The position numbers were made by a program, and so were the translations under genes. A DNA stretch of 64,000 nucleotides from Escherichia coli O157:H7 (GTDB taxonomy: Bacteria > Pseudomonadota > Gammaproteobacteria > Enterobacterales > Enterobacteriaceae): NCBI GenBank assembly GCA_013403045.1, contig GCA_013403045.1_3037.1; one strand, written 5' to 3'. The notes under the pieces were generated by a model that saw only the letters and a list, made by a program, of their open reading frames with translations, had not been told where the DNA came from and did not search any database. Positions 51,040-54,540 of this stretch are shown here, one piece after another (position 1 is the stretch's first letter; every line of letters begins with the position of its first letter).

Positions 51040-51297
51040 ATGAAAACTTTCAAAGAGTTTGCTACAAAAACTACTATCACTGAATCTTCTCATGGTATGG
51101 AAGTAAAGCTTGGAATGGCTTTAGCTGAAGCTGAGCGTCTTTTCTCTCGTATTAAAGAACTTGCTGCTGCAGTCGATCCTTCGTCTTTTAAAGGAGACCA
51201 AACTAAAGTTAAAGCACTTTTAGCATTATGCTCTGACGCAGGAGAAATCGCTAAAAATGGTTCTAAGATGAAGAAACGATTAGAAGATTTAAAATAA
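51040..51297 (+). CDS. internal protein (IPI-like), capsid-targeted
   Basis: N-terminus MKTFKEFATKTTITE resembles the T4 capsid-targeting sequence with an I-x-E gp21 site; early promoter upstream; located next to 57B where ipI lies in T4. Confidence 0.6.
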   Translation: MKTFKEFATKTTITESSHGMEVKLGMALAEAERLFSRIKELAAAVDPSSFKGDQTKVKALLALCSDAGEIAKNGSKMKKRLEDLK

Positions 51298-51309
51298 TTT
51301 CACAAAGTT

Positions 51310-51339
51310 GTTTACACGGGGTTTTAGTAGTGATACTAT
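51310..51339 (+). promoter_or_regulatory. early promoter (GTTTACA, 17-nt spacer, TACTAT), second copy of the repeated cassette
   Basis: -35 and -10 regions identical to the copy at 50980-51009. Confidence 0.6.
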
Positions 51340-51367
51340 TACCCTATCAACTACTGAGGAGAATAAA

Positions 51368-51553
51368 ATGAAACGCTGTGAATTAATTCGAAATGTTGCT
51401 ATTGCAATTTCTGCTTCCGCTTTTAGTTTTTCAATGTTTGTTGGATTTATATGCGGATTATTAACTACAGCAGAAAATGTATTTTCACTTGTAGTAGCAT
51501 TTTTAATTGGTTTAATTGCTATCGTTATGGATAAAATTTCTAAAGGTGAGTAA
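51368..51553 (+). CDS. small hydrophobic membrane protein (61 aa)
   Basis: GAGGAG ribosome-binding site then ATG; two hydrophobic stretches. Confidence 0.5.
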   Translation: MKRCELIRNVAIAISASAFSFSMFVGFICGLLTTAENVFSLVVAFLIGLIAIVMDKISKGE

Positions 51554-51554
51554 A

Positions 51555-51935
51555 ATGTATAAAGTATATGCAGATTATCAGGCTAATCCATCTGAAAAGC
51601 CAGATTGCCAAATTGGATGGGCTCATGATACCTTGCTTGAAGCAGTAGATGCTGCTCAAAAATTAGGATATAGTTATGTAGATATTGTTCAACCTGGTGG
51701 AACAGTTATTACTCTTGAAGAGTTCAATAACATTAAACCAAACTTTTTACTTTTTGCAGGTGATAATTATTATCCTCGCGGTGGATATGCTGATTTAATC
51801 GCGAAAGCCGCTACCGAAGATGAACTCCGTGACATTATCAAAGAAAATGAGAACAAACCAATGTATGGTTCTAATCGCTTTGATTGGTGGCAAATTGTAA
51901 ATGCCCACACTCATACTATTGTTGATGAAGGGTAA
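51555..51935 (+). CDS. hypothetical protein
   Basis: ORF; likely start MYKVYADY immediately after the upstream stop. Confidence 0.55.
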   Translation: MYKVYADYQANPSEKPDCQIGWAHDTLLEAVDAAQKLGYSYVDIVQPGGTVITLEEFNNIKPNFLLFAGDNYYPRGGYADLIAKAATEDELRDIIKENENKPMYGSNRFDWWQIVNAHTHTIVDEG

Positions 51936-51937
51936 TA

Positions 51938-52228
51938 ATGATTCTTTATGCTAAAGTATCGTCCATTGAAAATGGATATAAATATGATCAAGAAGCAGCT
52001 AAAGCCTTGATTGATGATTATGGCATTTTAACATGTTTTGAAGTTGAAAAGGTTTACATTGACCGTTCATCTTCTCAGGTTAAATTAGTGAAGGAAGACC
52101 GTAAATTTAATACAGTAAATTTTGATTTCTTTATTGAAACAGAAAAAGGTCCTCTTGAATATGATATTTTCAAGAATCCTTTAAATCTTGAATGTATTAA
52201 ATATACTTATATTAATGCAGCGTGGTGA
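51938..52228 (+). CDS. hypothetical protein
   Basis: 96-aa ORF tightly packed with neighbours. Confidence 0.55.
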   Translation: MILYAKVSSIENGYKYDQEAAKALIDDYGILTCFEVEKVYIDRSSSQVKLVKEDRKFNTVNFDFFIETEKGPLEYDIFKNPLNLECIKYTYINAAW

Positions 52229-52230
52229 AA

Positions 52231-52746
52231 ATGAATATTTGTTTAGGTACTACAATTCCGCAGGGTTACGTAATTGATGTCACTACCTGGGAAAATGATG
52301 GTGACAACTATAAAACTAAAACACTGTTTGGCGTAGAAGAGCATGAAATCTTACAGTTCCAATATCTTTTAAAGAAGTTTAAAAGCAGACATTCTAGTAC
52401 TAAAGCTGAACGTTATTGTGGTAATGGCTTGTTCAGCGAGCAATCGCTTTTTATTTATGAATACTTGGTTGAAGGACTGTTCTCAGAACAACTTTATCCA
52501 GAATTCATTAAAAAGGTCTTTGATATAGAAGTTGACCTTGGTAATAAATCCGAAGAAGATGAAGAACGTGTATTTGACTTATTCTTTGTGAATGGTAATA
52601 AGATATTTGAAGGCCTTATTGATATTCTTGGTCATGCTTCTGAATATTATGACTATGATTTCTTGCGTGTAGTTGAGAGTGTTAAATACTCTTATATAGA
52701 AGAAGAAATTGTTTTGCCGACCGTTAAAATGTTTAATTTGCTTTAA
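52231..52746 (+). CDS. hypothetical protein
   Basis: ORF; ATG at 52231 after the GTG listed by the track. Confidence 0.55.
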   Translation: MNICLGTTIPQGYVIDVTTWENDGDNYKTKTLFGVEEHEILQFQYLLKKFKSRHSSTKAERYCGNGLFSEQSLFIYEYLVEGLFSEQLYPEFIKKVFDIEVDLGNKSEEDEERVFDLFFVNGNKIFEGLIDILGHASEYYDYDFLRVVESVKYSYIEEEIVLPTVKMFNLL

Positions 52747-52843
52747 GAATTATTTGTTATTATTAACTCATACCGCACTGATTAATACCCTCTATCATCA
52801 GAGAAAGTCCAATAGGCAGAACAGGAGATTGGATTCTTTTAAT

Positions 52844-53002
52844 TATGCTTGTTAATATTTTGACAGCAGCAATATTATCTGGGATATGGTGCGCGTTCAT
52901 TGAAATGCCATGGCGGTTACGCAGACAGCAAAAGATTTTTGATGAAAAGAAATATACTCAAAATTTAAATAACTTTATCACTGAATGCAGGAAATTAAAA
53001 TG
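52844..53002 (+). CDS. possible small membrane peptide (52 aa)
   Basis: Short ORF with a hydrophobic N-terminus, overlapping the nudE start; weak ribosome-binding site. Confidence 0.25.
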
Positions 53003-53440
53003 AAAACATTATCAGCTGGTATTATTTTTATGACAGAAGATAAAGATTTATTTATGGGTCGGGTTACTGGTTCTCGTAAGCCTGGAATGATGGCACATCG
53101 CTGGGATATTCCAAAGGGCCGTGTAGAAAATTCTGATTTAAGCGCATTAGATGCAGCACGAAGAGAATGCTTAGAAGAGACTGGTTTTGGCAATTATAAT
53201 CCAGACCTTCTAGAAGACCTAGGTGTATTTAAATATTCTAGTAATAAAGACCTACAGTTGTTTTATTATACGATTCCAGTAGAGCATGAGATGTTTAGAA
53301 ATTGCCATTGCGAGTCTTATTTTGAAAATAAAGATGGCGTTATGATTCCAGAGATGGACGCTTTTGCTCTTATTCCTCGTACTCAGTGGCAATATGTGAT
53401 GGGTCCTTCACTTTACCGAATAATGAACAACCTCTTTTAA
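52985..53440 (+). CDS. nudE: Nudix hydrolase NudE
   Basis: Nudix box [24 protein letters not shown]; adjacent to e as in T4. Confidence 0.85.
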
Positions 53441-53443
53441 TTT

Positions 53444-53464
53444 TATAAATACCTTCTATAAATA
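53444..53464 (+). promoter_or_regulatory. two tandem late promoters (TATAAATA) upstream of e
   Basis: TATAAATA at about 53444-53451 and 53457-53464, followed by AGGAGG and the ATG. Confidence 0.65.
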
Positions 53465-53477
53465 CTTAGGAGGTATT

Positions 53478-53972
53478 ATGAATATATTTGAAATGCTACG
53501 TATAGATGAAGGTCTTAGACTTAAAATCTATAAAGACACAGAAGGCTATTATACTATTGGCATTGGTCATTTGCTTACTAAAAGTCCATCACTAAGTGTT
53601 GCTAAATCTGAATTAGATAAAGCTATTGGGCGTAATTGCAATGGTGTAATTACAAAAGATGAGGCTGAAAAACTCTTTAATCAGGATGTTGATGCTGCTG
53701 TTCGCGGAATTCTGAGAAATGCTAAATTAAAACCAGTTTATGATTCTCTTGATGCAGTTCGTCGTTGTGCACTGATTAATATGGTCTTCCAAATGGGAGA
53801 AACTGGCGTAGCAGGATTTACTAACTCTTTGCGTATGCTTCAACAAAAACGCTGGGATGAAGCAGCAGTTAACTTAGCTAAAAGTAGATGGTATAATCAA
53901 ACACCTAATCGCGCAAAACGAGTCATTGCTACGTTTAGAACTGGCACTTGGGACGCGTATAAAAATCTATAA
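53478..53972 (+). CDS. e: endolysin (T4 lysozyme)
   Basis: 164 aa, [35 protein letters not shown] matches T4 lysozyme from memory; two late promoter motifs and an AGGAGG ribosome-binding site upstream. Confidence 0.97.
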
Positions 53973-53977
53973 AGTTA

Positions 53978-54006
53978 TTTACTTTCTCCTAGAATTGTGA
54001 TAGTAT
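53978..54006 (+). promoter_or_regulatory. early promoter (TTTACT, 17-nt spacer, TAGTAT) upstream of internal-protein gene
   Basis: Motif read from sequence. Confidence 0.5.
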
Positions 54007-54066
54007 ATTCACAGTTACTTGAAGAGATAAATTATTAATTAAAATATTTACATTTAAAGGATACAC

Positions 54067-54540
54067 ATGAAAACATATCAAGAATTTATTACTGAAGCAG
54101 CTATTAATTCTCAAATTATTGCTGAATCTTTTACTGATCTTTTGAAATTTAAAAAAGGTCAAAAAATCACTGCTGTATTGGATGATGGTACAGAAGTTGA
54201 GATGGATGTACAGGGATATAATTATGCAGTAGATGGAAAACTGTATAATAAATCTCATGCTAAATTTGATTCATTTGACGACTTTGTTAATACAGTTGAA
54301 GATGAAAAAACTCGTAGATCCATTGCAACTGGCGACGCTAAGGTTCTTATGGCACATGGCCATGAACGCATCCGCGCTAAACAGAATAAAATGGGCGAAG
54401 ATAATTTTGCATTAGTTGGTTATCAATCTGGTAAACAAACTTATGGCTATCAGCGTACTGCTACCATGTATAACAAAAATGGTAAAATTGCCTTTGTGAA
54501 TAGTAAAGGTTCTATTCAGTACGTTAAATCGTTCAAATAA
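54067..54540 (+). CDS. internal protein (IPII/IPIII-like), capsid-targeted
   Basis: N-terminus MKTYQEFITEAAINSQIIAE has capsid-targeting sequence features and I-x-E sites; early promoter upstream. Confidence 0.7.
   Translation: MKTYQEFITEAAINSQIIAESFTDLLKFKKGQKITAVLDDGTEVEMDVQGYNYAVDGKLYNKSHAKFDSFDDFVNTVEDEKTRRSIATGDAKVLMAHGHERIRAKQNKMGEDNFALVGYQSGKQTYGYQRTATMYNKNGKIAFVNSKGSIQYVKSFK

Follow-up and report, generated by a model that had tools for sequence, protein, structure and literature searches.

In phage T4, the internal head proteins Ip1, Ip2 and Ip3 each inhibit a distinct GmrSD enzyme and an N-terminal signal directs their packaging (PMC12373910), with IPIII being needed on strain ECOR17 (PMC9391042). 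A further targeting-peptide protein of the ipI locus, Bas37_0260 of phage Bas37, inhibits McrBC (bioRxiv 10.1101/2025.11.20.689424). The T4 map reads, in the direction of early transcription, 57B, ipI, trna.4/.3/.2, the tRNA genes, e.8 to e.2, nudE, e and ipIII, and DNA from this part of the genome can be lost: a T4 tRNA-gene deletion is viable, with burst size and protein synthesis lowered (Wilson 1973, as cited in PMC3152331), and laboratory-evolved T4 loses accessory-gene blocks of 0.7-6 kb (PMC9391042). Here we analyze the corresponding locus in a 64-kb stretch of DNA, referred to throughout as the window, which carries two internal-protein (ip) genes, ip5 and ip4, and in which the tRNA gene cluster that lies between ipI and e in T4 is missing.

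By nucleotide identity, the window is a 64-kb stretch of the known T4-like coliphage Escherichia phage AR1 (genus Tequatrovirus), given on the early-gene strand. Positions 1-52800 correspond to AR1 (NC_027983.1) 122756..69957 with a single mismatch, as found by blastn and by direct comparison, and positions 52801-64000 correspond to AR1 63894..52695 exactly (blastn). The genome measures ~161 kb, 64 kb of which lies in the window, and across these 64 kb only two lesions separate AR1 from the window, a 6,062-bp deletion and one base change in hoc. No phage record covers the region in one piece; its left half matches one set of phages and its right half matches AR1 at 100%. All genes in the interval 50.5-55.3 kb lie on the plus strand, and their order, 57B, an open reading frame (ORF) of 85 amino acids, four small ORFs, an ORF fragment, nudE, e, an ORF of 157 amino acids and vs.8, is that of the T4 map.

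The sequence-only reading of this DNA had proposed that the tRNA cluster is absent between the ipI locus and e, and this was borne out, as ARAGORN predicts 0 tRNA genes in the whole window, while Rfam gives no match in the window at gathering score and, with the cut-off relaxed to E<=10 for 50900-55000, still none to a tRNA. The three hits returned at E<=10 are chance-level small nucleolar RNA or small RNA matches, and we rejected tRNA remnants or other RNAs in 50.9-55.0 kb on this basis. The cluster is absent because 6,062 bp (AR1 63895-69956) have been lost relative to AR1 at a junction between positions 52800 and 52801, placed by blastn and a slide test. The left breakpoint falls 54 nucleotides (nt) past the stop codon of ar1_142 and 33 nt before tRNA-Gln in AR1, while the right breakpoint falls inside codon 96 of ar1_129, which encodes an e.2-like membrane protein of 162 amino acids in AR1. 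The lost DNA holds all 10 AR1 tRNA genes (AR1_t001-t010: Gln, Leu, Gly, Ser, Thr, one with a CAU anticodon, Tyr, Asn, His and Arg), the CAU-anticodon gene being annotated as Ile/AUA at the same position in Bas37 and Bas43. Also lost are twelve annotated ORFs, namely the GIY-YIG homing endonuclease gene segD, ar1_141, ar1_139, ar1_138, ar1_137, ar1_136, e.8, e.7, e.6, e.5, e.4 and e.3, together with the first 95 codons of ar1_129. That 51.3-53.0 kb holds small ORFs and no tRNA gene had been read correctly from the sequence; the loss of e.3-e.8, the truncation of the e.2-like gene and the single deletion that caused both had been missed.

Translation across the junction leaves a 3' remnant of ar1_129 at 52801-53003 (plus strand), in which the last 66 codons are kept (52803-53003) and the original start codon is gone; an internal ATG at 52845 would give a 52-residue peptide, and the remnant matches phrog_2203 at profile positions 117-166 only. 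Since ar1_129 is truncated, the window represents a derived, deleted state and, judged by this remnant, its lineage did not lack tRNAs originally. The junction is blunt, in that the breakpoints share no base, and the lack of microhomology points to illegitimate (non-homologous) joining. A repeat-mediated deletion was considered and rejected, as there is neither microhomology nor meaningful similarity within 200 nt either side of the breakpoints. The junction sequence was found in none of 50,697 phage records (INPHARED), nor in IMG/VR, JGI metagenomes, GTDB genomes or complete E. coli genomes. The deletion is thus a private new allele of a long-known kind, T4 tRNA-region deletions having been known to be viable since the 1970s.

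The second lesion, G to A at 15009, is the only base difference from AR1 outside the deletion. It lies in hoc (14602-16026, plus strand), where it turns codon 136 (15007-15009) from TGG (Trp) into TGA (stop), so that Hoc, the head decoration protein, would end after 135 of its 474 residues. By established T4 genetics hoc is dispensable. At odds with this, the Bas37 transposon screen calls hoc 'Essential'. The two lesions, one in the tRNA/e region and one in hoc, fit a passaged or engineered AR1 derivative.

Comparison with the tRNA-region, evolved and engineered deletions of T4 shows the same kind of event, a multi-kb dispensable loss between ipI and e that leaves a viable phage; the known T4 deletion mutants have a reduced burst size or a narrowed host range. 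The window allele differs from them in its AR1 background, its unique breakpoints, its blunt junction and its extent, which takes in the whole tRNA array plus e.3-e.8. Other deletions in the e.2-e.8 interval are present in public records, in phage EH2 and in the mutant T4_583L (MZ375356.1). In the former, phage vB_Eco_EH2 (OZ034684.1, 160.5 kb; locus L003, 5434-6170), the 11 tRNA genes are still present, e.8-e.2 are gone and the Nudix gene has been cut down to 354 nt, so that this accessory island was hit by a separate deletion. The literature was also searched for Tequatroviruses that have no tRNA genes by nature, with an uninformative outcome.

The first of the two internal-protein genes, ip5 (51040-51297, plus strand, 85 residues), occupies the ipI locus between 57B/acb1 and trna.4, and the second, ip4 (54067-54540, plus strand, 157 residues), occupies the ipII/ipIII locus just downstream of e; the ORF listing contains both at exactly these positions. 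Over all 85 residues, the amino-acid sequence of Ip5 is 100% identical to those of RB15 Ip5 and of bas37_0261 from Bas37. The ORF at 54067-54540 is annotated Ip4 in AR1 and RB51, is 99% identical to Ip4 of phage K3 (Q38388), matches Pfam DUF7412 (PF24183) over its full length (E 6e-96) and belongs to phrog_3155, 'internal virion protein'; a tblastn search returned matches in 471 records, including ~70%-identical versions in Klebsiella T4-like phages. Both genes are, on these identities, already known and named, and new annotation is not needed. The synteny of the two loci (57B-trna.4, and next to e) is shared with AR1, T4, Sa45lw, Bas37, Bas38, Bas43 and Bas44. Because they combine a targeting motif and conserved protease sites with the classical ip loci and with identity or near-identity to named Ip5 and Ip4, their assignment as internal head proteins, already put forward by the sequence-only reading, is supported by every test possible at this level.

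A six-frame scan of the 64 kb with the pattern MK[TS][YF].[ETD]F returns exactly two ORFs, ip5 and ip4. In an alignment with T4 IPI, IPII and IPIII and with RB15 Ip5, Ip7, Ip8 and Ip9, residues K2, T3, E6 and F7 are invariant, and the likeness to the three T4 proteins ends past the N-terminal peptide. The cleavage motif of the T4 prohead protease (gp21) is (L/I)-x-E, and both proteins carry it within their first ~20 residues. Cleavage of the Ip5 targeting peptide, MKTFKEFATKTTITE, is predicted to follow E15, and I13-T14-E15 is invariant among homologues diverged to ~81% identity. In Ip4, the targeting peptide MKTYQEFITE (I8-T9-E10) is followed by a second site, I-A-E, at 18-20 (I18-A19-E20), and E10 and E20 are >=90% conserved among homologues diverged to 61% identity. 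The T4-like capsid-targeting N-termini with I-x-E sites that had been noticed in the sequence are therefore conserved among homologues and confined to these two ORFs of the window. Mature Ip5 (16-85) is predicted to comprise 70 residues (~7.5 kDa, isoelectric point (pI) 9.2), and mature Ip4 147 or 137 residues (about 15.5-16.5 kDa, pI about 9.2). The AlphaFold2 (AF2) model of Ip4 (pLDDT 73) has a mixed alpha/beta small-barrel fold and the structure prediction for Ip5 is a helical hairpin; searches with the two predicted structures gave no informative match, the BFVD match to Ip4 being only Ip4 itself.

Among described ip loci, the nearest to that of ip5 are those of RB15 and Bas37, in which Ip5 sits at the same locus (57B to trna.4) behind the same flanking promoter. 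RB15 has four ip genes there (ip5, ip9, ip7 and ip8) and Bas37 two, whereas AR1 and the window have ip5 alone. Ip4 of K3, RB51 and AR1 is 99-100% identical to that of the window and is encoded in the same place downstream of e, with denV lying between e and ip4 in some relatives. T4 IPI, whose form IPI* inhibits the GmrSD of E. coli CT596, shares with Ip5 its locus and an IPI-type peptide, MKTFKEF..TT..ITE, but the mature parts are unrelated: identity is 26-31% and concentrated at the N-terminus, and Ip5 has no match to any IPI entry among Protein Data Bank (PDB) sequences. The IPI* structure is a compact alpha/beta fold, which also differs from the helical hairpin predicted for Ip5. Likewise, T4 IPII and IPIII, inhibitors of the GmrSD systems of ECOR21 and ECOR17, share with Ip4 the locus next to e and the peptide MKTYQEFI.E, but identity is 13-15% with no likeness beyond the peptide. 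We accordingly rejected orthology between Ip5 and T4 IPI*, as their mature domains show no homology. As the likeness to T4 IPI stops at the targeting peptide, GmrSD inhibition is not simply transferable to Ip5 or Ip4. Bas37_0260, which comes from the same locus as Ip5 and has an N-terminal peptide of the same kind, illustrates that ip-locus genes beyond T4 Ip1-3 also target type IV restriction; its identity to Ip5 is 26% and confined to the N-terminus. Ip5 was also rejected as the McrBC inhibitor of Bas37, since that activity belongs to the gene beside it, bas37_0260, for which the window contains no counterpart.

Taken together, we propose that the window is a stretch of AR1 that carries the known genes ip5 and ip4, that its tRNA genes were lost through one 6,062-bp deletion, and that the two internal proteins are presumably packaged, injected and directed against a nuclease, a reading to which we assign a probability of roughly 0.75. 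By analogy with T4, the ~10-residue MKT(Y/F)(Q/K)EF peptide would send Ip5 and Ip4 to the scaffolding core of the prohead, and the gene 21 protease, which is encoded in the window (21431-22069, minus strand, an intact ORF in the mapped AR1 annotation), would cut them after the conserved (I/L)-x-E. Once processed, these small basic proteins would enter the host with the phage DNA and, most likely, neutralize a nuclease with which the host attacks modified DNA of the phage; this last step is suggested because the four T-even internal proteins with known targets (Ip1, Ip2, Ip3 and Bas37_0260) all inhibit type IV restriction. The deletion itself would have arisen by illegitimate joining, from 33 nt upstream of tRNA-Gln, just past a promoter, to the inside of ar1_129. 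Its carrier should grow on laboratory hosts, with less efficient translation of the late genes and a reduced fitness on certain wild hosts.

A host on which Ip5 may matter is suggested by the Bas37 transposon screen, in which insertions in bas37_0261, identical to Ip5, are tolerated on K-12 (18/18 TA sites hit). On CFT073, insertions in the same gene are depleted 4-fold (mean 263 to 61, log2 fold change (log2FC) -2.09, adjusted p reported as 0). Given that these data concern an identical Ip5, the uropathogenic strain CFT073 is a place to look for its target. Bas37 has no ip4, and the CFT073 screen therefore covers Ip5 only.

Several points weigh against the proposed reading. The CFT073 signal of Ip5 comes from one unvalidated screen and could be a local effect, as 57B/acb1 beside ip5 also drops on this host (-1.56). 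When ten further ip genes were tried against GmrSD variants, no new inhibitory pair emerged (Silas and co-workers, PMC12373910). An anti-type-IV role of Ip4 or Ip5 would hold by analogy, and their packaging, cleavage and injection are predictions. As for the deletion, its blunt junction is atypical beside the 6-10 bp microhomologies at the sequenced amplification boundaries of evolved T4 (PMC9391042), and it has been seen in no other sequence searched. An artefact at the level of the sequence is also possible.

In that case, the gap of 6 kb would stem from misassembly or from editing of the AR1 sequence, with the tRNA cluster still present in the real phage. The near-complete identity of the 64 kb to the AR1 reference, broken by one base, is what such an origin would leave behind, as are the blunt junction, its absence from every public collection searched and the tidy change of TGG to a TGA stop in hoc as the only other difference. 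Yet the breakpoints contain no repeat that an assembler could collapse, and they ignore annotation boundaries, falling 33 nt before tRNA-Gln and in codon 96 of ar1_129, unlike what a deliberate removal of the tRNA cluster would produce. Both lesions, moreover, affect functions that are dispensable in culture, the tRNA/e region and, by T4 genetics though not by the Bas37 screen, hoc; a viable stock that had been passaged or engineered should show this pattern, whereas random corruption would be unlikely to give it. We therefore consider an artefact unlikely, while giving it enough weight to keep two outcomes in view. A real deletion would define a T4-like phage without tRNA genes and e.3-e.8, derived from AR1, which draws interest for its specificity to O157:H7; an artefact would instead teach something about how good the source sequence is.

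If the deletion is real, the Bas37 screen gives an indication of its cost. The Bas37 orthologues of ar1_129, e.3, e.4, e.5, e.6, e.8, ar1_137 and ar1_139 (85-99% identity) are called non-essential on K-12. The same call is made for two candidate counterparts of e.7 and segD, respectively a short gene where e.7 would lie and a gene for a homing endonuclease, and insertions in Bas37 tRNA genes were recovered. Judged by these counterparts, the deletion appears confined to genes that are dispensable in laboratory hosts. The tRNA genes may nevertheless matter for late translation: across 21 late structural genes in the window, CAA, UUA, GGA, UCA, ACA, AUA and AGA together make up 15.2% of codons. 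Seven of the lost tRNAs read these A-ending codons, and with the array lost, late translation would depend wholly on host tRNAs. On CFT073, the Bas37 orthologues of e.5 and e.6 are among the strongest conditionally required genes (log2FC -3.62 and -6.49), so that by analogy the deletion should narrow the host range. The lost tRNAs should thus lower late-protein output, and the narrower host range expected from the loss of e.5 and e.6 matters for a typing or biocontrol stock. The CFT073 phenotypes of Ip5, e.5 and e.6 in the sister phage are useful leads.

A more ambitious version of the proposed history, which we regard as improbable, is that the window comes from a real, viable AR1 lineage that lost the tRNA array and the e.3-e.8 island in one non-homologous event and lost Hoc by the stop codon, with the loss possibly having been selected. 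Selection could have acted if a deleted gene triggers a host defence, or if genome size was traded against a change outside the window. Such a lineage would be a natural knock-out in which the contribution of the tRNA array and of e.5/e.6 could be measured on O157:H7 or CFT073, and Ip5 and Ip4 would be left as its only window proteins with the strict targeting motif.

An early-promoter motif, TTTAC-N14-GTGATANTAT, is matched exactly at 50981, 51311 and 53978, upstream of ip5, trna.4 and ip4, respectively, and with one mismatch at a fourth site of the window; the number of matches that chance would give is 0.06. The site before ip5 (50981-51009) reads TTTACA-17-TACTAT and that before ip4 (53978-54006) TTTACT-17-TAGTAT, each with an upstream TG, and the site before trna.4 spans 51311-51339, all on the plus strand. 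A generic sigma-70 scan also found two of the three exact matches, the ip4 promoter (53978-54006) falling below its threshold. An early promoter before each ip gene, as anticipated from the sequence alone, is thus present as an exact motif match in both cases. Late-promoter motifs, TATAAATA, lie at 53444 and 53457 (plus strand) upstream of e, from where they could drive late read-through into ip4, and a further one lies inside gene 1 at 49907; directly upstream of ip5 or ip4 there is no TATAAATA late promoter.

This arrangement would suit a situation in which Ip4, Ip5 or both are unpackaged, cytoplasmic early proteins with a vestigial N-terminal motif, as both genes sit behind early-type promoters and none of the late type directly precedes them. 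In T4, IPIII stripped of its targeting peptide remains functional if the host expresses it (Srikant et al., PMC9391042). Set against this, the targeting motif and the cleavage-site Glu are conserved in homologues at ~61% (Ip4) and ~81% (Ip5) identity, and the late promoters at 53444, 53457 and 49907 could supply late transcripts. The targeting sequence is also reportedly sufficient for packaging in T4 (Mullaney and Black 1996). We consider unpackaged proteins very unlikely and retain the prediction that both are packaged and injected. That the tRNA genes have merely moved elsewhere in the genome, into the part beyond the 64 kb visible here, can be set aside as highly improbable, since all 10 lie inside the deleted block in AR1, the array occupies the same locus in every relative inspected, and ordinary protein genes and half of ar1_129 have gone with them, as a deletion but not a transposition would lead one to expect.

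The early-promoter-like sites also form part of a direct repeat that brackets ip5. Its two 69-nt copies, on the plus strand at 50952-51020 and 51282-51350, are 84% identical and 330 nt apart; the left copy comprises the last 57B/acb1 codons (..DLK stop) and the promoter-like site before ip5, and the right copy the end of ip5 (..DLK stop) and the promoter-like site before trna.4. The repeat is likely a recombination border for swapping ip cassettes, and such a border would account for the variable number of ip genes at the ip locus, from one to four depending on the phage. A cassette border at the ip locus was noted by Repoila et al. and was later discussed together with PeSL (promoter-early stem-loop) elements in PMC4122927. 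The PeSL cassettes of T4-type phages resemble ip5 in having repeated early-promoter segments as cassette borders, but they need a stem-loop just before the early promoter, which the promoters bracketing ip5 lack. No stem-loop was detected before these promoters, where the upstream 55-60 nt fold no better than shuffled sequence (z-scores -0.03 to +1.4), and PeSL membership of the ip5-locus promoters was rejected on this ground.

A middle-promoter match to the T4 consensus (MotA box TGCTTTA, 12 nt, TATTAT) is found at 52739-52763 (plus strand), overlapping the ar1_142 stop codon; the T4 pattern has 12 matches in the window against 2.4 expected. In AR1, by its position, this promoter would start transcription just before tRNA-Gln, and in the window it now points into the truncated ar1_129, nudE and e.

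Of the neighbouring genes, 57B/acb1 (50512-50967) is annotated 'RNA ligase' in AR1 and is the anti-CBASS nuclease Acb1 by Pfam PF23474 (E 2.6e-60), which places ip5 in a small anti-defence neighbourhood. Mapping of the AR1 annotation puts trna.4 at 51368-51553, trna.3 at 51555-51935, trna.2 at 51938-52228 and ar1_142 at 52231-52746; all four belong to PHROG families of unknown function and have no Pfam family match. The synteny anchors nudE (52985-53440) and the lysozyme gene e (53478-53972) follow, and these six genes and 57B/acb1 are all on the plus strand.

The DNA that separates the tRNA array from e.8 in AR1 and Bas37 codes for proteins whose N-termini resemble those of internal proteins and for which every annotation reads 'hypothetical'. 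In AR1 this is ar1_137 (locus L001, 3319-3792), inside the DNA missing from the window, and in Bas37 these are bas37_0243 and bas37_0244 (locus L014, 5029-5592 and 5718-6191). The proteins ar1_137 and bas37_0244 begin MKSY(A/T)QFLNEAVLNEA, and bas37_0243 begins MKTYAEFLTEAA. A terminator hairpin and a TATAAATA late promoter precede ar1_137, a member of phrog_2280 ('unknown function') to which 512 phage records give tblastn matches; for bas37_0243, the call in the Bas37 screen is 'Essential'. Judged by these N-termini, the ar1_137/bas37_0243/bas37_0244 region may be a third, unrecognised ip locus that has been lost from the window, and is a further useful lead.

Downstream of ip4, the G+C content rises to 45-49% at 54541-54700 (window, 35.7%), and this stretch shares 93% identity with the 5' end of the coding sequence of T4 vs.8. 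A small RNA at 54541-54690 was considered and rejected in view of this coding similarity and of folding no better than that of shuffled sequence (z -0.14). In AR1, vs.8 is annotated from 54646, and the PHROG alignment begins at residue 19, which suggests that the real start of vs.8 is the ATG at 54694, after the ribosome-binding-like sequence AGAGAATAAA.

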